Positions 1,255 through 37,841 of a stretch of DNA of 39,240 nt are shown here, piece after piece. The notes beneath the pieces were generated by a model that was not told where the DNA came from, made no database searches, and worked only from the letters and a program-made list of their open reading frames with translations. This DNA comes from a virus. Its lineage: Duplodnaviria; Heunggongvirae; Uroviricota; Caudoviricetes. The position numbers were made by a program, and so were the translations under genes. Every line of letters starts with the position of its first letter. Position 1 is the stretch's first letter. The stretch lies in IMG/VR virus record IMGVR_UViG_2634166457_000020, positions 1 to 39,240 of that record. One strand, given 5' to 3'.

Positions 1255-1449
1255 TTAATTATTCTGCTGATTTTCTTCCATCTCGTCTTCTGCTGCCAGT
1301 GATTCAATTTTATCTGTGAACATTGCTGACAGTGTTGCAAATTCAGCATCAGTGACAGCGGGAATTGGAACAAACCTGATCCCGCTGTGTGCAAGCATGT
1401 TTGCAGTTTCAAGGCATTTCCTTAAATCTGCTGGTGATGCCCTGTTCAT
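1255..1449 (-). CDS. Small acidic hypothetical protein (64 aa, C-terminal EDEMEENQQNN), last gene of cargo operon
   Basis: Internal Met of the 1255..1569 ORF; its ATG (1449..1447) overlaps the methyltransferase stop (1448..1446) as ATGA, indicating translational coupling; no recognisable domain. Confidence 0.4.
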   Translation of the reverse strand: MNRASPADLRKCLETANMLAHSGIRFVPIPAVTDAEFATLSAMFTDKIESLAAEDEMEENQQNN

Positions 1450-2093
1450 GCTGCACGCTCCCGCCCCTGGTTGTCTGTTGGTGACAGCGGAGCATTGCTG
1501 AATGCATTTGTTAATCTGGCAATATCCAACGCGTATCCAGGGTGTAGTTGCACTGCCGGGTCTTCGCACTGATTACCCCAAACATCGAAGCCATGAGACG
1601 ACTGGCGGGCGAACAGTTCAATGCGAGAAACATCGCCTAACAATTGCACAAGTTTTTCACGCACGACATCTGGTTTTCTTGAATGCTCAAGCCGCGGTGC
1701 GGTAAATGACTGAACGATCCCTGCATTAATGCGCGTAGGTAGTTTTCCCTTTACCGCAAACAGGCAATCTTCACTATTGGCGCGAGTCATGTGTCCCATA
1801 CCCATAACCAGTTTATCTGGTTGTCGACTACCACATTTTATCCACGTGAATCCCTTCATGGTCATCAGACGGAATCCCCAGGCTTCAACAACTTTTAGTG
1901 CTTCGAGTGGTTGTGTTGGCACCCACCACATTGCCAACAGACAGTTTTCATCGGACAAATCCCACACAGGAAGGCGGCAGATATCCAGCACACTCATAAC
2001 CGGATATTTAAAACCAGCGCCGCGATTACCATCTGCGGCTTTGTCCCGGTATACCCAGGGTGGATCTGCATAGATTAGCGTGTATTTTTTCAT
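1446..2093 (-). CDS. MT-A70 family (beta-class) N6-adenine DNA methyltransferase, 215 aa
   Basis: N-terminal catalytic motif IYADPPWVY (DPPW) characteristic of MT-A70/N6-adenine methyltransferases; start taken at MKKYTLIYADPPW (ATG 2093..2091), which overlaps the upstream gene stop (2092..2090) as ATGA. Confidence 0.8.
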   Translation of the reverse strand: MKKYTLIYADPPWVYRDKAADGNRGAGFKYPVMSVLDICRLPVWDLSDENCLLAMWWVPTQPLEALKVVEAWGFRLMTMKGFTWIKCGSRQPDKLVMGMGHMTRANSEDCLFAVKGKLPTRINAGIVQSFTAPRLEHSRKPDVVREKLVQLLGDVSRIELFARQSSHGFDVWGNQCEDPAVQLHPGYALDIARLTNAFSNAPLSPTDNQGRERAA

Positions 2094-3193
2094 TGTTCTG
2101 CTCCCAGACTTCCTTTGGTAAAAGCTTGTATCAGCCTGTTTGCTGCCGCTTTCTGTGCTGCTACATTGGCAATAACTGATAGTTTTTCCTGGCTTGCTTT
2201 CGTGCAGATCCCAACCCAATTATCCATTAGGAAAAAATTCTCTCTTTCTGCGAAGTCAGTATTTGCACATAATGTTTCAATCATTGAAATTATTTCTTTT
2301 ATTGAGTGATTAACCATCATTTGCTGAACAGCATAACCAAAAGCGTTAATCATCACTGCATGAAACTGGATATATTCTCTTTTGTATTCTGATTGCTTTG
2401 TACCATGGCGAATTGCTTCTAGTTGTGTAAGACATAACCATGATTCCCATACTGACTCGATGTTACCAATTTCTAGTTTTTTTCCATTATGAATACAAAA
2501 TTTTGATGTTGAATCACTTAATGCTTTGAAACTCACCCACATGTTTGACTTTGACGGAACAACGTTGTGCTCGAAGTCAGTGACTTCTGCAAAAGTGTCA
2601 TGTTGCGACAGGAAAGACACCATTTCTTGGGCAACATCGTTTCGTCCGTCATACGCCATATTAATTGCTGCAGATGGTTTTGAAACATTATTATTAATGT
2701 CAGAAAAGAACTGCTGACGCGCCTTCAAAGGAAGGTTATGCGTAAGTATAAGAGGAATCATAATTGTTTCACCATAATTACGGCAGAACTCAGCTAATCC
2801 TGCAGCACGATGCTGTCCATCAAATAATTTTATTTCTGCATCCATAGGAAATCTAGCTAAACCGACATTAGTATTTCCAATCTCATGGAACTCTATTTCT
2901 GAGTTACAATTTCCGACCAATGGTGGAACAATAAATGGTTCCTTTTTCTCGTAAGCGTTGACTAAATATTGATAAAACTTTTTTACCCTGGTTGGATTAA
3001 TTTCACGTTGAGAACGTTCAAGGGTACTTCCCGTATTGTCGGTTGCCAATACTCTCGATAGTGCTCTTGCTGGTACTGTCATCATAAGTATTACAGTGCT
3101 TCCCTGCGTTCCTCGTGATGCGGGAAATTCAAAGAAATAATCGCCTACCTTGCTCATGATATTACCTTTTATATTATTGTTTTGTTTATTCAT
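2090..3193 (-). CDS. DGQHR-domain protein (DndB-like / ParB-like DNA-binding), 367 aa (or 355 aa if start is ATG at 3157)
   Basis: Contains the FDGQHRAAGL motif defining the DGQHR domain family; tight coupling to the downstream methyltransferase. Confidence 0.7.
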   Translation of the reverse strand: MNKQNNNIKGNIMSKVGDYFFEFPASRGTQGSTVILMMTVPARALSRVLATDNTGSTLERSQREINPTRVKKFYQYLVNAYEKKEPFIVPPLVGNCNSEIEFHEIGNTNVGLARFPMDAEIKLFDGQHRAAGLAEFCRNYGETIMIPLILTHNLPLKARQQFFSDINNNVSKPSAAINMAYDGRNDVAQEMVSFLSQHDTFAEVTDFEHNVVPSKSNMWVSFKALSDSTSKFCIHNGKKLEIGNIESVWESWLCLTQLEAIRHGTKQSEYKREYIQFHAVMINAFGYAVQQMMVNHSIKEIISMIETLCANTDFAERENFFLMDNWVGICTKASQEKLSVIANVAAQKAAANRLIQAFTKGSLGAEQ

Positions 3194-6281: not shown

Positions 6282-6371
6282 TTACCTCGGTCTGTTACCG
6301 TTGAGGTAATAATTATGCGTATCTGGTTTGGTGTCAATAGATATGAGTTAAAAAAATTACCCATTAGGTAA
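6282..6371. promoter_or_regulatory. Leftward operator/promoter cluster (OL-like): TTACC-GTTGA-GGTAA (6295-6309), TTACC-CATTA-GGTAA (6357-6371), extra TTACC half-site 6282-6286
   Basis: Perfect 15-bp inverted repeats between the repressor terminator and the first leftward gene. Confidence 0.6.
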
Positions 6372-6428: not shown

Positions 6429-7013
6429 TTATTGTTTGTTTTTTTCGTTCTGGTTGATGACAAATTCAATGTAACTTTCGATCTTTGCTTTCTCGGTTTC
6501 GGGTAACAATGCGTAGCGCGAGCGATCATAGTTGATGGTCGCAGGGTCGTGCGGGTGAATCAGTAATTCATAGCCGTGACGCCCGAATGCGGATGCAACA
6601 TTCTCCAGGGTGGAAATGGAAACGCTGACCTCATTGTTTAACAGGCGGCTGATTGTCACCTGGGCGACGCCGGATGCGCGGTGAAGTTTTCCCTGAGTTG
6701 AAAGGTCGCGGCTTTCGCTCATCCAGCGTTCCAGGTTGTGAGCCGCCAGCTGACCAATGTCGCTTGGGCCGACAGGCTGAAAACCTTCCTGAGAAAGCGA
6801 GCGATCGATATCAAGCCAGTTACGGGGTTTATTGGCGGCAGCTTCAATTTTTCGCGCAACCTGGTCGCCGATAACCTTCTTGCCAAGAGCCCAGCGGTTT
6901 ACCAGATTTGCCTGAGTTCCAAGTTTTTCTGCCATCCGCGTCTGAACACCATTGAATTCACGGTCGATCAAGTCGTTGAGATTTTGCCTGCGGACGTCCT
7001 GGATACTTTTCAT
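6429..7013 (-). CDS. Phage repressor-like protein with two tandem XRE-type helix-turn-helix domains, 194 aa; no S24 peptidase domain
   Basis: HTH 1 TRMAEKLGTQANLVNRWALGKK; HTH 2 KLHRASGVAQVTISRLLNNEVSVSISTLENVASAFG; located between two operator clusters and divergent from a Cro-like gene. Confidence 0.65.
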   Translation of the reverse strand: MKSIQDVRRQNLNDLIDREFNGVQTRMAEKLGTQANLVNRWALGKKVIGDQVARKIEAAANKPRNWLDIDRSLSQEGFQPVGPSDIGQLAAHNLERWMSESRDLSTQGKLHRASGVAQVTISRLLNNEVSVSISTLENVASAFGRHGYELLIHPHDPATINYDRSRYALLPETEKAKIESYIEFVINQNEKNKQ

Positions 7014-22423: not shown

Positions 22424-24894
22424 TGGCTATCAGTTGGATCCAGCCCAGCTTTGCCGGTGGTGAGATTGGACCGTCGTTGTACGGTCGTATCGACATGGCG
22501 AAGTACCAGGTGGCATTGCGCAAGTGCGATAACTTTATCGTGCGGCAGTATGGCGGCGTTGAGAATCGACCTGGTACGCGTTTTGTCGGTGCCGCCAAAT
22601 ACCCAAATCGGAAATGCCGCCTGATCCCGTTCCAGTTCTCGACGGTTCAGACTTATGCTCTGGAGTTCGGACACCAGTACATGCGCGTTATCAAAGATGG
22701 TGCGTTGGTGCTGAACAGCAGCAATGTTATTTATGAAATTGCCACGCCATATACTGAAGCCGATCTGTTCCGAATTAAATTCACGCAAAGCGCAGACGTG
22801 CTTACGCTGGTTCACCCGGCATACCCGCCGAAAGAGTTGCGCCGCTACGCGCATGACAACTGGCAACTGGTTGATGTGGTAACGAAGAACGGGCCATTTG
22901 AAGATATCAATATTGACGAGTCAGTGACGGTTTATGCCAGCGCCAGCACCGGGACAATTACGTTAACGGCAAGCGCCTCTATTTTTGGCGCGGAGCAGGT
23001 AGGCAAATTGTTCTATCTGGAACAGCCTGCAGTGGATTCAGTGCCGGTATGGGAAACCAGTAAGAGTACGTCGATTGGCGATATTCGCCGTGCAGACAGT
23101 AATTACTATCGCGCCGTTACAGCAGGCAAAACAGGCACTTTGCGCCCTTCGCATACAGAAGGCACATCATGGGATGGCTGGGGCGGATCCGGTGATGATG
23201 ATACTGGCATTGAGTGGGAGTATCTGCACAGTGGGTTTGGCATTGCCCGTATCACTGCTGTAAACGGCACTACTGCAACTGCCGAGGTGATTTCCTATAT
23301 CCCTTCGCAGGTCGTTGGCGAGGATAATGCCAGCTATAAATGGGCTAAATATGCCTGGAACAGTGTTAATGGTTATCCTGGCACTGTTGTTTATTATCAA
23401 CAACGTCTTTACTTCGCCGCATCGACTGCGTTCCCTCAGACTATCTGGGCCAGCCGTACCGGGGATTATAAGGATTTTGGCAAAAGCAATCCTACGCAGG
23501 ATGACGACAGAATTATCTACACCTATGCCGGGCGTCAGGTTAATGAGATCCGCCACCTGATTGATGTCGGCTCGCTGGTGGCACTGACTTCCGGAGGTGA
23601 GTACGTCATCACCGGCGACCAGAACAAAGTGTTAACCCCATCATCATTTGCATTCAGCTCTCAGGGATCAAATGGCTCGAGCAATGTCCCACCAATTGCC
23701 GTGGCGAATATTGCTCTGTTCGTCCAGGATAAAGGCAGTGTTGTCCGTGATCTGGCCTACTCATTCGATGTTGACGGCTATCAGGGGAACGACCTGACCA
23801 TCCTTGCCAATCATCTTTTTCAGAAGCACAGCATTGTTGACTGGTGCTTCTCTATTGTCCCTTACTCCAGCGCCTTCTGCATTCGTGATGACGGTAAATT
23901 ACTGGTGATGACCTATTTGCGTGATCAGCAGGTTTTTGCATGGGCACCACAATCCAGTACCGGAAAATATGAAAGCACATGCAGTATCAGCGAAGGAAAT
24001 GAAGATGCGGTGTATTTCGTCATTAACCGAACCGTTAACGGGCAAACAGTGAGATACATCGAGCGACTGTCCAGCCGTTTATTTACCAGCGATGAAGATG
24101 CTTTCTTTGTTGATTCTGGCCTTAGCTATGATGGAAGAAATACGTCTGACAGAACGATGACCATCACTGGTGGTTCTGGCGAATGGGATTACCGCGCGGA
24201 ATATCCAATCAGTGTTTCTGGTGGCGCGTACTTCACCAGTAGTGATGTCGGTGCGCAACTACAGTTCCCTTATACCGGAACTGATCCTGATACTGGCGAT
24301 GAAGTGTCAAAAGAATTACGTTGCGACATTATTTCTGTAACCAGCAATACCGCAGTAGTGGTTCGTGCTAACAGGAACGTCCCGCCATCCCTCAGGAATG
24401 TGGCCACCACGAACTGGCAGATGGCGCGCCGGACATTTGGAGGCCTGTCTCATCTTGAAGGCCAGACCGTAAACATTCTCTCTGATGCGAACGTGGAACC
24501 ACAGAAAGTGGTTTCCGGAGGTGCCGTCACGCTGGAATCTCCGGGGGCTGTAGTGCACATCGGCCTGCCAATAACTGCTGAATTCGAAACACTGGATATC
24601 AACATTAACGGACAGGAAACGCTGCTGGACAAAAAACAGGTGATCCCGTCCGTTACTCTGGTTGTGAATGCCAGTCGCGGCATCTGGGCGACTACGCCCG
24701 GCGGTAAATGGTACGAATATCCACAGCGTGAATTCGAGTTCTATGATGATCCTGTTGATGACGCTACCGGAAAAGTAGAAGTGAAACTGGACAGTAACTG
24801 GGGCAAAAACGGACGTGTAAAAATCCGTCAGCTTGACCCGTTGCCGCTGTCTGTTCTTGCCGTTATTCCTCGCCTTACTGTTGGGGGATTCTGA
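22423..24894 (+). CDS. Tail nozzle/tubular protein (T7 gp12-like), 823 aa
   Basis: Large protein after the adaptor-like gene; translationally coupled. Confidence 0.5.
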   Translation: MAISWIQPSFAGGEIGPSLYGRIDMAKYQVALRKCDNFIVRQYGGVENRPGTRFVGAAKYPNRKCRLIPFQFSTVQTYALEFGHQYMRVIKDGALVLNSSNVIYEIATPYTEADLFRIKFTQSADVLTLVHPAYPPKELRRYAHDNWQLVDVVTKNGPFEDINIDESVTVYASASTGTITLTASASIFGAEQVGKLFYLEQPAVDSVPVWETSKSTSIGDIRRADSNYYRAVTAGKTGTLRPSHTEGTSWDGWGGSGDDDTGIEWEYLHSGFGIARITAVNGTTATAEVISYIPSQVVGEDNASYKWAKYAWNSVNGYPGTVVYYQQRLYFAASTAFPQTIWASRTGDYKDFGKSNPTQDDDRIIYTYAGRQVNEIRHLIDVGSLVALTSGGEYVITGDQNKVLTPSSFAFSSQGSNGSSNVPPIAVANIALFVQDKGSVVRDLAYSFDVDGYQGNDLTILANHLFQKHSIVDWCFSIVPYSSAFCIRDDGKLLVMTYLRDQQVFAWAPQSSTGKYESTCSISEGNEDAVYFVINRTVNGQTVRYIERLSSRLFTSDEDAFFVDSGLSYDGRNTSDRTMTITGGSGEWDYRAEYPISVSGGAYFTSSDVGAQLQFPYTGTDPDTGDEVSKELRCDIISVTSNTAVVVRANRNVPPSLRNVATTNWQMARRTFGGLSHLEGQTVNILSDANVEPQKVVSGGAVTLESPGAVVHIGLPITAEFETLDININGQETLLDKKQVIPSVTLVVNASRGIWATTPGGKWYEYPQREFEFYDDPVDDATGKVEVKLDSNWGKNGRVKIRQLDPLPLSVLAVIPRLTVGGF

Positions 24895-33153: not shown

Positions 33154-33349
33154 CTTATCTTCTCCATGCAATAACTGTATGAATATACAGTACCAAATAA
33201 TTTGTTTGCTATCCAGCACGTTTTGTAAATCACCTGAAAGGTAATATCTGTTCGTATCGATGATGTTTCTATCCCATATATGGTTTTTAAGGTAATAAAA
33301 TGGCCGGATATGCGGCGCAACGGGTGCTGCGACTATCTGGAGATTTAAC

Positions 33350-36106
33350 ATGACGGTCTCAACCGAAGTTGACCACAACGAATACATTGGTAACGGTGTT
33401 ACAACGACATTCCCTTATACATTCAGGATTTTCCAGAGATCAGATCTGGTAGTACATGTGGTTGACCTTGATGAAAATATCGCTGTGCTGGCGCTTGATA
33501 CTGATTACACAGTTACCGGGGCTGGTGGATACAACGGTGGTAATGTGATATTGACTACGGCACTGGCCAGCGGATACCAGATTTCCATATCGCGAGAACT
33601 CCCGGTTACGCAGGAAACTGATCTGCGCAATCAAGGGAAGTTCTTTGCTGAGGTGCATGAGGATGCATTTGATAAGCTAACGATGTTGATTCAGCAGGTT
33701 AGAAGTTGGTTTAGCCTAGCGCTGCGCAAACCGTCATTCGTGGCAAGCTATTACGATGCTTTAAATAATTACATCAGAAATTTGCGTGATCCACTACATC
33801 CACAGGATGCAGCCACTAAAAACTATGCTGACTCATTAAATGCTGAAAATACATCACATACAGATTTGTTATTTAGTAGAACTTTGCGTACAGCAGAAGG
33901 TATTCCACAATTACCATCTGCAGAGTTCCGCAAAAATAAAATTGTTGGTATGGATAATGACGGTAACCCGATCATGTTGTTACCGGAATCTGGTTCTGCC
34001 TCTGATGTTCTGCTGGAGTTGGCAAAACCAACTGGTGCCAGTTATATCGGTACGAAGTATGGTAGTCTTGATGAGTACATAGACAATACTCCAAGCCTGT
34101 TAGCCACAAAGTATATGGATGAAATTGAGATGGCAGCACTGGAGTCAGGTGACTTGTCAGTAAACCATCAGCCAAAGGTCCAGCAGGTAATGGATGAAGC
34201 CCATAACAGGAAATGCTCAGTGTATTTCCCGCCAGGTACATACTGCTTTGATACCGCTGTTAACGTCTGGTCTTACGTCCGTTCTGTTTGGGGTGACGGT
34301 AGTGCAATTATTACTCGTCGGTATCGCACGTTTTTTGTTGATGGCTCAACGACAGATATTGATCCGGCGCGTGATACACGTAAATTATTCCGATTGTTAA
34401 ATGGGGCATTGGGGTATATATCAGTGCATGGTATTACGTTTGATGGTAATGCCAGATCTATCGAGGTGTCGGAATCCGGTACGAGCGGTACGACAGGAAT
34501 TCCAGACCAAACATATTATCAGGACCTGGAGCCTGGTGGCACCTCTCCTTATGTCCATGGGCCTGATGGTAACATCCCTGTTCATGGGGAAAGCTATTAC
34601 AACCACGCAAAGAAACTGTCTGGAACAGATGTGTATGATTGTGTGTTTCGTGATGCTCCAGGCGGATGTATTGTTGGTAACTTCAGAAATCTTAGGGTCT
34701 CCTCAAACTCATTTTTGGGTTGGTATGATCACGCAATTTACGCAGCAGGAAGTGCTTTCGCTGATCAGGGTAATGGAATTTTGGTTGGTGATATTACGGT
34801 CACTGGGAATACCTTCAGGAACAGAATAAACACTCGTGGTAATGGGGCTGTTAAAGGAAGGTTTGGTTTTGACCGTTATACAGTTACTGGCAATACATTT
34901 GATGTTGTTGATTATTGTATGGCGTTTGATACTGGTCACGGGATGGTCGGAAGTGTTTACGCCATGCAGCCATGGGGGCAGATCACTGTAACTGGTAATA
35001 CATGCACCTGTGATAGTTATTGGATGATGATAGGTAACAACAGAGGTGTTAAGTGGTTTGATAACGGATGGATGTCTGCTATCAATATTTCTAACAACAC
35101 AGTCCAATCTAAGGATAGGATCCTGTTACTTGGAGTTAGCGGCAGTAATGATTATTTGATGGATGCATATCAAGTAAATATATCCAATAACACTTTTTCT
35201 GCACCTAACTTCTTATCGCTTTACACTCATTTAACTAACTGCGATTGGCGCATAGAAAGTAACAACATAACAATTACTAACACAGGGATGATTATAGGTG
35301 TAGACCAGGCTGAGGTTTCAAACTCAGTTCTTAGGCTTACAAATAATATAATGGGACGTGTATTAACGACCTCTACTGGCAATCTTCATCTCAGCAATTT
35401 CGAGCGCGTTATCATGAAAGGTAATGAGATTCGAAATCTGTCTATGAGTTTTGGTAGCTACGTTACTGACCTAACTATTGAAGGAAATGAATTCAGGTAC
35501 TCTTCTGCACTTCCTTCAAAACCATTTGGCTTTATGTACTCATCTGCTGGCAATGGATTCAACAGAATTAAATTATGTAAAAATAAAATCGTGGGTAGTC
35601 CAATAAGATTTTCCGTGAAATGCTCATCTGATTGTGTTCTTGACATGAGTGATAATAGCATTTACGGAATTACTGATTACTTCCTTGAGTTGAATGCAAC
35701 TGGTTACACTCCTAAAACCATGAGGGTTAACAACAATCTGGTGATAGGTGGTGCGCTAATAGCTGATCTTCCTGCTGGAGTATCTCTTGGTAGCACCTCA
35801 AGTTATATGGAGTTGATGAACAACACCTTACGATCAACTTCTCCAGGGACACAGCAGTCATGTACCATTCTGCGTGATGGAGGCGCTCAATCTTGGCTTA
35901 GCCATTATCAAACTATTCGGTGTGTAAAAAACACATTCCGCGATGTCACTAACATATTGAAAATAGATGGCTCTGCTTCTTCTGGGGTTTCTACAACTAA
36001 TAAGTTCTGGTTCGGCGAGAATCAGACATACAATTCAACGTTGACATGTAACTATCCTTCAATAAACAAGTCAAACACAGATGTCACACAGACTTTAAGT
36101 GTATAG
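33350..36106 (+). CDS. Tailspike/tail fiber protein with conserved N-terminal virion-attachment domain and beta-helix-like repeats, 918 aa
   Basis: N-terminal region EYIGNGVTTTFPYTFRIF typical of tail fiber/tailspike anchor domains; repetitive TVTGNTF-type segments suggest a right-handed beta-helix. Confidence 0.8.
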   Translation: MTVSTEVDHNEYIGNGVTTTFPYTFRIFQRSDLVVHVVDLDENIAVLALDTDYTVTGAGGYNGGNVILTTALASGYQISISRELPVTQETDLRNQGKFFAEVHEDAFDKLTMLIQQVRSWFSLALRKPSFVASYYDALNNYIRNLRDPLHPQDAATKNYADSLNAENTSHTDLLFSRTLRTAEGIPQLPSAEFRKNKIVGMDNDGNPIMLLPESGSASDVLLELAKPTGASYIGTKYGSLDEYIDNTPSLLATKYMDEIEMAALESGDLSVNHQPKVQQVMDEAHNRKCSVYFPPGTYCFDTAVNVWSYVRSVWGDGSAIITRRYRTFFVDGSTTDIDPARDTRKLFRLLNGALGYISVHGITFDGNARSIEVSESGTSGTTGIPDQTYYQDLEPGGTSPYVHGPDGNIPVHGESYYNHAKKLSGTDVYDCVFRDAPGGCIVGNFRNLRVSSNSFLGWYDHAIYAAGSAFADQGNGILVGDITVTGNTFRNRINTRGNGAVKGRFGFDRYTVTGNTFDVVDYCMAFDTGHGMVGSVYAMQPWGQITVTGNTCTCDSYWMMIGNNRGVKWFDNGWMSAINISNNTVQSKDRILLLGVSGSNDYLMDAYQVNISNNTFSAPNFLSLYTHLTNCDWRIESNNITITNTGMIIGVDQAEVSNSVLRLTNNIMGRVLTTSTGNLHLSNFERVIMKGNEIRNLSMSFGSYVTDLTIEGNEFRYSSALPSKPFGFMYSSAGNGFNRIKLCKNKIVGSPIRFSVKCSSDCVLDMSDNSIYGITDYFLELNATGYTPKTMRVNNNLVIGGALIADLPAGVSLGSTSSYMELMNNTLRSTSPGTQQSCTILRDGGAQSWLSHYQTIRCVKNTFRDVTNILKIDGSASSGVSTTNKFWFGENQTYNSTLTCNYPSINKSNTDVTQTLSV

Positions 36107-36107
36107 T

Positions 36108-36136
36108 AAAAAGGCGGCAATGCCGCCTTTGTTTTA
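36108..36136. terminator. Bidirectional rho-independent terminator between tailspike (+) and acyltransferase (-): GGCGGC-AAT-GCCGCC flanked by A-run and T-run
   Basis: 6-bp stem 36113-36127 with AAAAA upstream and TTTGTTTTATTTT downstream. Confidence 0.65.
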
Positions 36137-37252
36137 TTTTATCTTGTATCTTTTTTCAATTTTATTATACAGGATGGCGGAAAGTATAATTGCTAATGTT
36201 ATCGCCCCAAACTGCATCAATATAAAATATCTGGCTGATGTTTGCTCTAGGTTGATAAATTTGCTGTAAGAATTGAATGTAATGTTAAGCGATAACTGAT
36301 GTACTAAATACAAACTGTAACTTATAATACCAATATTCGATATGCTTCTTTTAGAAAAAATAGACGGTCTGGATGCGATAAATGCCATGAAAAATACTGA
36401 TGTCGCGCAGAACATTTCGAATTCATATACTTTAAAATCACCAAAAATCGAATATATAAAGAGCAATGGCATTACGATCCACAAAGCATGTTTCAAATAA
36501 TTATTTGCAGGTTGCTTTATGTACGAAGCAATAAATCCTGTCAGGAAGTATGTCCACATTATTTGTTCGTTCTGATATCCAAGATATATGATTATCAGAG
36601 CTAAAGGTATTAAAGATATTCTTAACGGTTTAATAGCAAATGCACAGGCAAGAAATGGAACTGCTGCATAATATTTCCATTCGTAAGGTAACGTCCATGT
36701 AACAATATTAAGACTCCAGTCCCATATTGATCCGACCCTGATCCCACCCCCCCAGAAACCAAACCCATAAACACTACGAATGACTGTCATTACCTCATCA
36801 ATAGTTTTTATTTGCCCGTATCTCTGGAACATGAAAATTGCAAAAACTATTGTGGAAACAACAACGTATGCAGGAAGTAATCTATAAATCCTTTTCTGGA
36901 AAAAAGAGATATCGAAAATTCCCTTTTTTATAGTAGATGAAAATAAAAAACCTGTTAAGCAAAAGAATATGGATACTCCAAACGCACCCATTTTTTCAAA
37001 TGCGTACGCTGGCTGAATATTCATGTATGGTGATTTTAATCCTATAGCGGCAATTACAGTGTATGAGTGGTTAACGAAAACTAATAGACACGCAACTCCA
37101 CGCAAGCCCTCAAGGCTAAGGTCGTTATGGCTGCCAATTGGCGATATGTCTACAAACTTGTTTAGAACATAGCAAACACATACAGCAAATGTTACAAAAG
37201 AAAATGCATATACTGAATTATGTATACTAAGTAAGGGGAGTAAATTATCCAT
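36134..37252 (-). CDS. Acyltransferase family 3 integral membrane protein (probable O-antigen/surface polysaccharide O-acetyltransferase), 372 aa
   Basis: Motif LEGLRGVACLLVFVNH and many transmembrane segments typical of acyltransferase-3 proteins; AT-rich; adjacent to the tailspike. Confidence 0.75.
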   Translation of the reverse strand: MDNLLPLLSIHNSVYAFSFVTFAVCVCYVLNKFVDISPIGSHNDLSLEGLRGVACLLVFVNHSYTVIAAIGLKSPYMNIQPAYAFEKMGAFGVSIFFCLTGFLFSSTIKKGIFDISFFQKRIYRLLPAYVVVSTIVFAIFMFQRYGQIKTIDEVMTVIRSVYGFGFWGGGIRVGSIWDWSLNIVTWTLPYEWKYYAAVPFLACAFAIKPLRISLIPLALIIIYLGYQNEQIMWTYFLTGFIASYIKQPANNYLKHALWIVMPLLFIYSIFGDFKVYEFEMFCATSVFFMAFIASRPSIFSKRSISNIGIISYSLYLVHQLSLNITFNSYSKFINLEQTSARYFILMQFGAITLAIILSAILYNKIEKRYKIK

Positions 37253-37436
37253 TTAATCCTTGGCTCATTATCTTTAGTTTAATAAACAAAATTTTATTGA
37301 TGAATTTCGCAAGTGTATCACCCAAAAGGTAATTTTGGTAGGAGTTATTCTGGGTAATTCAAATCATATGTGGTTTATTGTGTATGATATGATCACCAAC
37401 TAAGGGGGTCTTTATGCACGGTAACAGGTGGTTTTT

Positions 37437-37841
37437 ATGTCAGTTCAGCTAACCAGTGAGTCTTTAAATCAGTGGCTTAGCGTGAGTTCTCTTGCTGCAG
37501 TGATAGCAGGTGTCCCTCCAGAGGTGGCTTTGGGAGCTTTGGCGGGGGCGGTAATTTTTGTTACCTCCGCCATCGAATACCCCATTCATCGCCGTGTTCT
37601 CCTGTCGATGCTCAGTTTCCTCTGCGGCCTTCTATTTTACAAACCAACAGCATCCATCCTTATCGGTATCGCTAGCCTGATACCTACCATCACGCAGGAC
37701 TCTTTCGAGAAAGGGATCGTCTTCTCTGCTGGCGCATTTGTGTCGGCAATTGTCGCTGTGCGAATTGGCATCTGGCTCTATCACCGTTCCGATAATCCAC
37801 GCGAGTTAATTCCGGGGAGAAAAGACGATGGTAACTCATGA
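37437..37841 (+). CDS. Putative holin (multi-pass membrane protein), about 134 aa
   Basis: 3-4 predicted transmembrane segments; first gene of cluster ending in endolysin and spanins; ATG 37437 with AGGTGG SD. Confidence 0.5.
   Translation: MSVQLTSESLNQWLSVSSLAAVIAGVPPEVALGALAGAVIFVTSAIEYPIHRRVLLSMLSFLCGLLFYKPTASILIGIASLIPTITQDSFEKGIVFSAGAFVSAIVAVRIGIWLYHRSDNPRELIPGRKDDGNS

Follow-up and report, generated by a model that had tools for sequence, protein, structure and literature searches.

An acyltransferase-3 gene inherited together with a tailspike receptor-binding part in an Escherichia coli prophage probably encodes an O-antigen-modifying conversion enzyme

The window (the whole stretch of 39,240 nucleotides analysed here) is a temperate E. 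coli prophage of the phiV10/epsilon15 type (Uetakevirus) that encodes an integrase and an HTH repressor; in it, a minus-strand gene for a membrane acyltransferase of the acyltransferase-3 (AT3) family converges with the tailspike gene. We consider it probable that the product is an O-acyltransferase of a surface polysaccharide, most likely the O-antigen, carried as lysogenic-conversion cargo that masks the tailspike receptor. The earlier note had already proposed a phage-borne accessory gene of this kind, and the proposal agrees with the genomic slot, the homology to Sf6 Oac, the AT3 motifs, the co-inheritance with the tailspike and a related copy linked to gtrABC. What is new is a cassette of receptor recognition and putative masking that is shared between prophages of differing backbone. 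The features concerned are as follows.

33350..36106, plus strand: tailspike, from the list of open reading frames
33350..34069, plus strand: N-terminal particle-binding part of the tailspike, about 240 residues, the Uetakevirus backbone portion
34070..36106, plus strand: receptor-binding/enzymatic part of the tailspike, about 678 residues (from about 241 to 918), with a weak pectate-lyase-like match; co-inherited with the AT3 gene
36110..36130, both strands: bidirectional intrinsic terminator common to the tailspike and AT3 transcripts, with U-tracts to about 36100 and about 36140
36134..37252, minus strand: AT3-only membrane acyltransferase gene, 372 residues, ATG start, assigned from the reading frame, Pfam, PHROG, motifs and an AlphaFold model
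34100..37250, no strand assigned: core of the mobile cassette (receptor-binding part, terminator and AT3 reading frame), delimited by sliding identity, segment identities and a tblastn table

The reading frame coincides exactly with the coordinates in the earlier note (36134-37252; 372 residues from an ATG), and its description there as an AT-rich gene for a multi-pass AT3 protein was borne out in each respect. The GC content of the gene is 34.2%, whereas the lysis genes reach 50.4% and the window as a whole averages 48.0%. The protein matches Pfam PF01757 (Acyl_transf_3; E 5e-24, 85.4 bits, cut-off 31) over residues 45-358, corresponding to profile positions 2-325 of 326, as well as PHROG 3333 'O-acetyltransferase' (1.5e-35); no NCBIfam equivalog or PADLOC model matched it. 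Ten hydropathy peaks and the 10-11 long helices of the AlphaFold model (pLDDT 82) mark a multi-pass membrane protein, and the model has a polytopic arrangement of about 10 helices with the fold of transmembrane acyl-CoA:sugar acyltransferases. Structure comparison found no bacterial AT3 structure; the eukaryotic acyltransferases HGSNAT and GWT1 share 13-14% identity with the protein, but are larger and use other acceptors. The 372 residues contain a single AT3 domain, with no second Pfam domain and no fused SGNH domain, as in the Sf6 Oac type of 330-380 residues. The two-domain AT3-SGNH type (OafA/OafB/OatA) is ruled out, given that the protein ends 14 residues past the AT3 domain.

Along the protein we recognized the motifs R51-x10-H62, V93SIFFCLT100GF, R121IYR124, W186TLPYEW192, H318 and E366. 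The R/K-X10-H motif of the first core transmembrane helix, as defined in PMC9558356, is present as R51-GVACLLVFVN-H62, and both end residues are invariant in 20 members of the clade. The RXXR motif of the first cytoplasmic loop appears as R121-IY-R124, followed by LLP, with R121, R124 and P127 likewise invariant, and this region aligns with KRARRIFPA of Sf6 Oac. The segment V93-SIFFCL-T100-GF agrees with V-X-X-F-F-X-(I/V/L)-S-G-(F/W/Y) at all positions but the serine, which is replaced by Thr100. This threonine is invariant in 20 clade members; a Ser-to-Leu change in the FFxxSG motif inactivates Lag1 (PMC9558356). An extra N-terminal helix, residues 10-30, is typical of the same clade, which is small and found almost only in prophage cargo positions.

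The convergence of the AT3 and tailspike genes, and the bidirectional terminator between them, were likewise found as previously described: the stop codons lie 27 nt apart, and the hairpin at 36110-36130 has a GGCGGC-AAT-GCCGCC core with T-runs on both strands. Folded as RNA, the plus-strand hairpin reaches -15.5 kcal/mol and the minus-strand one -14.4, and none of 200 shuffles was as stable on either strand. The terminator scan flagged the plus strand alone, since the scan prolongs the stem into the A/T run. The terminator is 100% identical in all Salmonella copies and is kept in gtr-linked copies of the AT3 gene. PHROG tail families match residues 1-240 of the tailspike only, and this N-terminal part is 76-88% identical to its counterparts in phiV10, PAS61 and TL-2011b; in their C-terminal parts, these three tailspikes show no relation to that of the window.

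There is clear sequence evidence, spanning different phage types in E. coli, Salmonella and Citrobacter, that the AT3 gene, the terminator and the receptor-binding part are passed on jointly as a single cassette. Over its length of about 3.2 kb, E. coli and Salmonella prophages are 95-100% identical, although their backbones share only 76-86% identity; against the Salmonella copies, the block of high identity runs from about 33900 to about 37400. Further copies of the cassette sit on other phage backbones. A 92%-identical AT3 variant (P0026) adjoins gtrA-gtrB-gtrC, by the tail-fibre genes of prophages with a Mu-like baseplate, and retains a relic of the tailspike 3' end; thus the AT3 gene can also travel without the receptor-binding part. 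In another locus (P0020), a separate GDSL gene adjoins the AT3 gene. A tblastn search of 50,697 phage records with the AT3 protein gave a best identity of 28%, so there is no close annotated relative among them; Sf101 OacB was weakly matched (8e-7) and phiV10 was not retrieved. Megablast of 35000-37440 found no cassette in 5,426 complete E. coli genomes, the match being confined to the holin edge. The named Salmonella carriers include serovar Lattenkamp, verified as 45:z35:1,5 (O:45), and serovar Apapa, presumably 45:m,t:-. Carrier assemblies comprise E. coli GCA_001186315.2, Salmonella GCA_030906925.1, GCA_023803015.1, GCA_006643685.1 and GCA_021188795.1, E. fergusonii ATCC 35469 and Citrobacter hosts, the identity of the receptor-binding part among carriers being 87-100%. 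No counterpart of Salmonella O45 was found in a review of E. coli O-antigens.

From these observations we infer a putative course of events. The AT3 gene would encode a functional single-domain membrane O-acyltransferase, most likely an O-acetyltransferase, carried as conversion cargo by this temperate phage. Expressed in the lysogen, the enzyme would take cytoplasmic acyl-CoA and acylate a sugar of a cell-surface polysaccharide, most likely the O-antigen and presumably the very polymer that the adjacent tailspike binds and cleaves. The acylated receptor would then be a poor substrate for the tailspike, leading to superinfection exclusion and an altered serotype. The cassette as a whole would move between phage backbones, and among E. 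coli, Salmonella (including O:45 serovars) and their relatives.

It is unlikely that the enzyme acylates another envelope glycan instead, such as a capsule or K-antigen, enterobacterial common antigen (as the AT3-only WecH), colanic acid or periplasmic glucans (as OpgC), with a tailspike that targets the same glycan or is functionally unrelated. AT3 domains do act on many acceptors (PMC9558356), and one related phage record calls its slot gene 'yiaH'. The nearest phage relatives of the window tailspike, Kuttervirus spikes (Vi01 'tail spike 3'), share just 54% identity. Furthermore, the occurrence of the cassette in several genera would also fit a glycan common to those genera. Against these points, the Uetakevirus spikes so far studied are O-antigen specific (PMC10408124), the gtrABC genes beside the 92%-identical copy form an O-antigen glucosylation operon, and, so far as their serogroups could be checked, the named Salmonella carriers all belong to one O group. 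In addition, the nearest characterised homologue, Sf6 Oac, is an O-antigen acetylase, and no NCBIfam model of the WecH or OpgC type matched the protein. The O-antigen remains the preferred acceptor.

In the region upstream of the gene, which may bear on its expression in the lysogen, and at related sites, the following features were delineated.

37253..37436, no strand assigned: divergent intergenic spacer between the AT3 gene (minus) and the holin-like gene (plus)
37291..37319, minus strand: hand-read candidate AT3 promoter, -35 GATACA (3/6), 17-nt spacer, -10 TAAAAT (5/6)
37318..37332, no strand assigned: operator-like palindrome with the sequence TCACC-CAAAA-GGTAA, a single instance of the dispersed motif TTACC-N5-GGTAA
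37355..37436, plus strand: backbone block 5' of the holin-like gene, CCAYATRTGG...TTTATTGTGTATGAT..., conserved in all Uetakeviruses compared
33230..33244, no strand assigned: a further operator-like palindrome (TCACC-TGAAA-GGTAA), 5' of the tailspike gene
6429..7013, minus strand: HTH_3 protein, candidate prophage repressor for the palindromes, with sites clustered at 6295, 6357, 7069, 7086 and 7117

The earlier note had assigned to the AT3 gene a promoter region of its own at 37253-37436, carrying the TCACC-CAAAA-GGTAA site. The segment is truly intergenic, with the holin-like gene probably starting at the ATG at 37437 (134 residues), but the promoter was not supported, as a consensus sigma-70 scan of the spacer found none on the AT3 strand. 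The candidate read by hand scores 8/12, under the scan threshold, and its -10 element is TAAGAT in the Salmonella copies; as a hypothesis only, it would place the transcription start at about 37284 and the operator centre near -41. The palindrome at 37318-37332 is real and not a product of chance, yet it is not specific to the AT3 gene, as it belongs to a genome-wide set of operator-like palindromes of the phage backbone: with at most one mismatch allowed, TTACC-N5-GGTAA gives 27 strand-matches in the window where 1.6 would be expected, a count that none of the shuffles attained. The epsilon15 record labels the corresponding motif 'repressor', and the palindrome at 33230, which together with that at 37318 brackets the tailspike/AT3 pair, occupies a position equivalent to an annotated epsilon15 repressor site (L025:645-661). 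For the HTH_3 candidate, the repressor role has been described in the Uetakevirus ZX5 (PMC9782041). Two other readings of the TCACC site were rejected. As an RNA hairpin or attenuator it gave z-scores of -1.1 and +0.1. As a part of the AT3 cassette it fails because phiV10 and epsilon15 have it, equally spaced from the holin-like gene, in front of unrelated cargo; the gtr-linked AT3 copies also lack it.

An operator-like site over the candidate -35 element could mean repression in lysogens. In that case, the O-antigen acyltransferase would be turned off by the prophage repressor and made only at infection or induction, shielding progeny from lysing cells and debris or blocking co-infecting phages without stable seroconversion. 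Situated 66 nt upstream of the AT3 start codon, the palindrome covers part of the sole plausible -35 region. Moreover, with at most one mismatch, the site in the slot spacer is confined to loci with minus-strand cargo (the window, L004, phiV10, epsilon15 and L010), being absent from four phages with plus-strand or no cargo and also from the minus-strand Proteus locus L009. We nevertheless give such lytic-phase expression a low probability. Operators with their centre near -41 can serve activation just as well as repression, lambda CI at PRM being an example. The palindrome keeps a constant 115-120 nt from the holin-like gene, so that it may instead serve the lysis side. In epsilon15, the genes that follow this site are classical examples of lysogenic conversion, and phiV10 oac has the same operator 40 nt upstream, yet LPS O-acetylation is described as blocking infection of the phiV10 lysogen in its record and in later work (PMC11854483).

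That the AT3 gene is an inactive or decaying passenger dragged along by the tailspike, with no present function, is highly improbable: although the 90% cluster contains truncated and split versions (e.g., 184 and 211 residues on one contig, and forms of 306-336 residues), the consensus scan found no promoter and threonine replaces the consensus serine of the FFxxSG motif, the window copy is full length, the gene is under purifying selection (dN/dS 0.04-0.18 at divergences up to a dS of about 1.2 or more), the catalytic-motif residues are all invariant in 20 members down to 27% identity, and at least five different phage backbones have kept the gene.

Returning to a conversion enzyme acting on the O-antigen, we advance a joint reading with slightly more doubt than confidence. 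The locus may be a 'recognise, then mask' cassette, complete in itself, that is directed at a single O-antigen, probably of the Salmonella O:45 type together with its relatives in E. coli, E. fergusonii and Citrobacter, and that is swapped whole between genera and onto at least four different tailspike anchors or phage backbones. Its landing place in Uetakeviruses would be a slot that provides the expression signals of the recipient phage, namely a leftward promoter associated with a repressor operator, and the prophage repressor may thereby turn on the masking gene.

The slot between the tailspike and holin-like genes holds oac in phiV10 and conversion genes in epsilon15. The phiV10 Oac, from an E. 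coli O157 phage, shares genus, slot and minus strand with the window gene, as well as the distance from palindrome to holin-like gene, and its part in O-antigen acetylation and immunity is experimentally supported (phiV10 record; PMC9558356). However, orthology with phiV10 Oac (YP_512280) was rejected, the best BLASTP segment comprising 20 residues (E 0.008) and hhalign giving a probability of 15%, and the C-terminal part of the phiV10 tailspike is unrelated to that of the window; it is a positional analogue only. The epsilon15 conversion module of Salmonella, an O-antigen-ligase-family gene (23271-24449) plus an inhibitor of the alpha-polymerase, is likewise on the minus strand in the same slot, past the terminator that follows the tailspike, with a perfect TTACCATATGGGTAA site just as far from the holin-like gene. 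Its biochemistry differs, in that a replacement polymerase and an inhibitor operate without an acyltransferase. The AT3 genes of PAS61 (618 residues, AT3 plus SGNH) and TL-2011b (368 residues), both annotated as O-antigen acetylases, also occupy this slot directly 3' of the tailspike. Unlike the window gene, they lie on the plus strand with no operator-like site in the spacer; their similarity to the window protein is weak (E 6e-10 and 1e-7, respectively), and PAS61 carries the fused SGNH domain. The gtr-linked Shigella acyltransferases, such as OacD of SfII, resemble the P0026 variant by context only, whereas the window copy is linked to a tailspike rather than to gtr genes as in Shigella serotype-converting phages. 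The oacD gene itself lies beside gtr genes. Its location on the SfII genome is documented in PMC9558356.

The closest parallel in layout is Sf6, a temperate phage as in the window but of another genus (Lederbergvirus, infecting Shigella), in which a plus-strand tailspike gene, a terminator and a minus-strand oac with its own upstream promoter region follow in the identical order. The hhalign comparison (probability 98.7%, E 2.8e-16, 300 columns) points to the window protein as a distant homologue of Sf6 Oac (OacA), which is also AT3-only and of comparable size (333 versus 372 residues); the alignment covers the R-x10-H, FFxxSG, RxxR, WTLPxE and C-terminal EKR motifs. Identity is just about 24%, however, and the window protein differs by an N-terminal extension of about 40 residues with the extra helix, by threonine in place of serine in the FFxxSG motif and by a conserved H318 that Sf6 Oac lacks. 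On its other side the window gene adjoins the lysis cassette, in contrast to the integrase in Sf6. Acetylation by Sf6 Oac blocks the endorhamnosidase tailspike of Sf6 itself (PMC9558356). That a temperate phage carries an enzyme modifying the receptor of its own tailspike has been established since Sf6 and phiV10, and the window locus does not change this general picture. To these systems it adds an uncharacterised AT3 clade, marked by the additional N-terminal helix and by a threonine fixed in place of serine within a motif of the catalytic region. It also adds a connection to Salmonella O:45-type antigens that can be put to the test, and sequence evidence that recognition and masking of a receptor are inherited together across phage types and host genera. 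Such co-inheritance bears on O-serogroup prediction from prophage tailspikes, phage-typing and phage-therapy host range, because lysogens may display a modified antigen, and the operator-like site offers a simple system for learning how conversion genes are wired into prophage repression.

The anatomy of the locus, given its ORF positions, domain matches and hairpin, is as the earlier note had described it.

33350..36106, plus strand: tailspike, 918 aa, the upstream neighbour of the acyltransferase-3 (AT3) gene
36110-36130, both strands: GC hairpin with flanking A- and T-runs, between the tailspike and AT3 stop codons
36134..37252, minus strand: AT3 gene, ATG start, 372 aa

The AT3 open reading frame lies exactly where it had been placed and is AT-rich as claimed: its GC content is 34.2%, compared with 48.0% in the window as a whole and 50.4% in the lysis genes downstream. 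Its product matches Pfam Acyl_transf_3 over residues 45-358 (85.4 bits, cut-off 31, E 5e-24) and PHROG 3333 'O-acetyltransferase' (1.5e-35), which confirms the acyltransferase-3 identity. Tailspike residues 1 to ~240 match many phage tail families; beyond them, the sole match is pectate-lyase-like and weak. A gap of 27 nt separates the two stop codons, and the hairpin within it folds as RNA at -15.5 kcal/mol on the plus strand and -14.4 on the minus strand, with 0 of 200 shuffles as stable on either strand. Thus, the proposed bidirectional terminator common to the convergent genes holds, and it insulates the AT3 gene from late transcription. Residues 1-44 of the AT3 protein (37121-37252) form a clade-specific N-terminal extension ahead of the AT3 core, kept in 19 of 20 clade members and lacking in Sf6 Oac. 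Its extra helix (residues 10-30) is confidently predicted and may alter the topology of the N-terminus. Several natural AT3 copies in the P0001 cluster of relatives (members P0030-P0038) are truncated or split: one E. coli contig, for example, has pieces of 184 + 211 aa, and lengths of 306-336 aa occur in E. coli and Salmonella. Such forms could reflect gene decay, an on/off switch or an artefact of assembly.

DNA similarity assigns the region to the phiV10/epsilon15 group, genus Uetakevirus, with the following landmarks.

1-1251: tyrosine integrase, at the window start
6429-7013, minus strand: HTH_3 protein, at the position of the Uetakevirus repressor
Window end: two-holin, endolysin and Rz cassette

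An identical AT3 protein (KNA41342.1) and 100%-identical DNA occur on an E. coli scaffold (GCA_001186315.2), where the prophage adjoins pdeF-yfgG-yfgH-yfgI and the flank is 99.6% identical to E. coli chromosomes. Given the integrase, the HTH_3 protein and this chromosomal flank, the window is a temperate prophage of E. coli. At 1446-3193 (minus strand), just past the integrase, a gene for a Type II DNA methyltransferase (PADLOC MTase_II, 7.6e-77) adjoins one for a DndB-like protein (Pfam PF14072, 2.2e-46; PADLOC DndB, 1.5e-37); the pair is possibly a second cargo module or one for anti-defence. Just past the window's right end, two GmrSD-like genes (as a pair at L015:4435-7516 and again at L014:4299-7516; Pfam GmrSD_N/GmrSD_C; PADLOC HEC-06/Orf5/SspE-like) lie between Rz and yfgI at the end of the source E. 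coli prophage; one of the two appears split in contig L015, and they are missing in E. coli relatives such as L010.

The AT3 gene occupies the position between the tailspike and the holin-like gene, a slot known for conversion genes. Its occupant in phiV10 is oac, on the minus strand as in the window, and annotated in the record as 'acetylates the host O-antigen; functions in superinfection immunity'. Epsilon15 has serotype-conversion genes in the slot, and PAS61 and TL-2011b have AT3 genes there, but on the plus strand; no acyltransferase was found in the slot of ZX5 and EC.W1-9. Sf6, a Lederbergvirus, shows the identical layout of tailspike (plus), terminator, oac (minus) and putative oac promoter, and the Oac proteins of Sf6 and phiV10 are summarised alike in an AT3 review (PMC9558356).

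AT3 relatives in a large protein database number only 24. Thirteen clade members, the window protein included, were traced to contigs, and all except P0020 lie in prophage cargo positions. AT3 is convergent with the tailspike in the Uetakevirus slot of the window, the Salmonella prophages (99.5%), Proteus terrae (55%) and E. coli (43%, 40%), with a 904-aa tailspike belonging to another podophage at locus L019 (89%), and with Tail_spike_N-type spikes on other backbones at locus L020 (70%) and in Citrobacter (43%). P0018 (32%) adjoins a phage integrase. For the most distant member, P0020 (30%), a separate GDSL/SGNH gene lies ahead of the AT3 gene (L038:1602-3673, L039:558-2629), so the two parts that are fused in AT3-SGNH proteins are encoded apart here.

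The AT3 gene is co-inherited with the receptor-binding, C-terminal part of the tailspike (RBD). Segment comparison of the window with the Salmonella prophages gave 76-86% identity for backbone genes and ~80% for the tailspike N-terminal part; a high-identity block extends from ~33900 to ~37400, with 97% for the RBD, 100% for the terminator, 99% for the AT3 gene and 95% for the spacer.

Identity by locus (AT3; tailspike N-terminal part; RBD)
Salmonella copies: 99.5%; 87%; 98%
L019: 89%; 41%; 94%
L020: 70%; none; 87%

At loci with AT3 at most 55% identical, the RBD is always unrelated, even where the tailspike N-terminal part is 78% identical. To the 90% cluster of the RBD, E. coli and Citrobacter also contribute 811-aa proteins that carry a P22-type head-binding domain, and S. 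enterica subsp. houtenae contributes a protein of 904 aa; accession numbers of several are consecutive with those of a 375-aa AT3 variant, which implies adjacency. Given these identities and this cluster, the RBD, terminator and AT3 gene behave as a single mobile cassette grafted on different anchors. It was not found among 5,426 complete E. coli genomes. Across its full length, the RBD (34100-36103) also shares 54% identity with 'tail spike 3' of Salmonella Kuttervirus Vi01 and with a spike of E. coli phage KEP4, a further instance of temperate podophages and virulent Ackermannviridae having an RBD in common.

We propose a putative model for the AT3 protein. In the lysogen, it would take an acyl group, probably acetyl, from acyl-CoA in the cytoplasm and attach it to a sugar within the O-antigen repeat. 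Acylation would change the serotype, the cognate tailspike would act poorly on the modified polysaccharide, and related phages would thereby be excluded. We consider this course of events quite probable. The earlier suggestion that the gene alters host surface polysaccharide is supported, as far as sequence analysis reaches, by the homology to Sf6 Oac, the slot and the co-inheritance with the RBD.

The gtr-linked copies provide an independent link of AT3 to O-antigen. The gene for this 375-aa variant, 92% identical (E. fergusonii ATCC 35469 CAQ88173.1 and E. coli; 67 contigs), immediately follows gtrA-gtrB-gtrC-type genes and adjoins a tail-fibre assembly gene in prophages with Mu-like baseplates. 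Together, gtrA, gtrB and gtrC make up the standard operon for glucosylation of the O-antigen. The stretch homologous to the window is 35997-37247; it takes in the AT3 ORF, the hairpin of the terminator and ~110 nt from the 3' end of the tailspike gene, and ends at the AT3 start codon. Given the relic tailspike end and hairpin, these copies descend from the tailspike-linked cassette, captured without its upstream region. Source names of the 372-aa Salmonella form include serovars Apapa, which we take to be 45:m,t:-, and Lattenkamp, 45:z35:1,5. The carrier serovars point to an O:45-type antigen as common receptor and acceptor. A different glycan as the acceptor seems unlikely; the gtr linkage and the carrier serovars both concern the O-antigen.

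Upstream of the AT3 gene, the earlier note had placed its own promoter region with a TCACC site. The site is present, but a sigma-70 scan of 37253-37436 on the AT3 strand found no promoter. The palindrome TTACC-N5-GGTAA has 27 strand-matches with at most one mismatch in the window, against 1.6 expected, and 15-bp copies lie at the following positions, listed with one candidate promoter.

Starts 6295, 6357, 7069, 7086, 7117, 7278, 7454: around the HTH repressor gene
Starts 9400, 9462, 13075, 13093, 16612: ahead of other gene blocks
Start 33230: upstream of the tailspike
37318-37332: AT3/holin-like spacer, TCACC-CAAAA-GGTAA
37319-37291, minus (AT3) strand: weak candidate promoter, GATACA, 17 nt, TAAAAT, read by hand

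Of the 12 best sites, at least 7 fall between genes even in an over-inclusive ORF map which leaves just 4.4% of the window non-coding, and in the epsilon15 record the counterpart of the site ahead of the tailspike is labelled a repressor binding site. The palindromes look like a genome-wide operator set for many transcription units. No significant RNA structure was found in the spacer site region. With at most one mismatch, the spacer site is present in the window, the Salmonella copy, phiV10, epsilon15 and L010, at a fixed 115-120 nt from the ATG of the holin-like gene; all carriers have minus-strand cargo in the slot, and the cargo genes are mutually unrelated. It was not found in PAS61, TL-2011b, ZX5, EC.W1-9 or the Proteus locus (best match at least 3 mismatches), nor upstream of the gtr-linked AT3 copies. 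The fixed distance, the unrelated cargos and the absence from gtr-linked copies show that the site belongs to the slot's backbone and not to the cassette.

The palindrome centre lies near -41 of the candidate promoter, which would fit repression or activation alike. Repressor-controlled expression of AT3 mainly in the lytic phase has, in our estimate, a small chance of being correct. LPS O-acetylation is reported to stop phiV10 from infecting a phiV10 lysogen (PMC11854483), a phenotype that makes the spacer-site arrangement compatible with an effect in the lysogen. In ZX5, over-expressed repressor cut holin and endolysin transcripts by >99.9% (PMC9782041), so the spacer site could also serve the lysis side. 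An ~85-nt block upstream of the holin-like gene (37355-37436), conserved in all Uetakeviruses compared, opens with the palindrome CCAYATRTGG and holds a -10-like TATGAT/TATAAT; an RNase III site is annotated in its epsilon15 equivalent, and the block may be a lysis-cassette promoter or processing region. The holin-like ORF (37428-37841) has its mechanical start at GTG 37428 (137 aa); since relatives are called at 134 aa, the true start is likely ATG 37437.

Decay of the AT3 gene is highly improbable; it is intact and selected, and encodes an AT3-only acyltransferase related to Sf6 Oac.

In summary, acylation of the O-antigen in the lysogen would be a kind of system already well known from Sf6 and phiV10, to which this locus adds co-transfer at the level of the cassette across backbones and genera, the O:45 lead, Thr100 and the N-terminal helix as clade-specific features, and the identification of the slot site as a putative operator-like element of the backbone.
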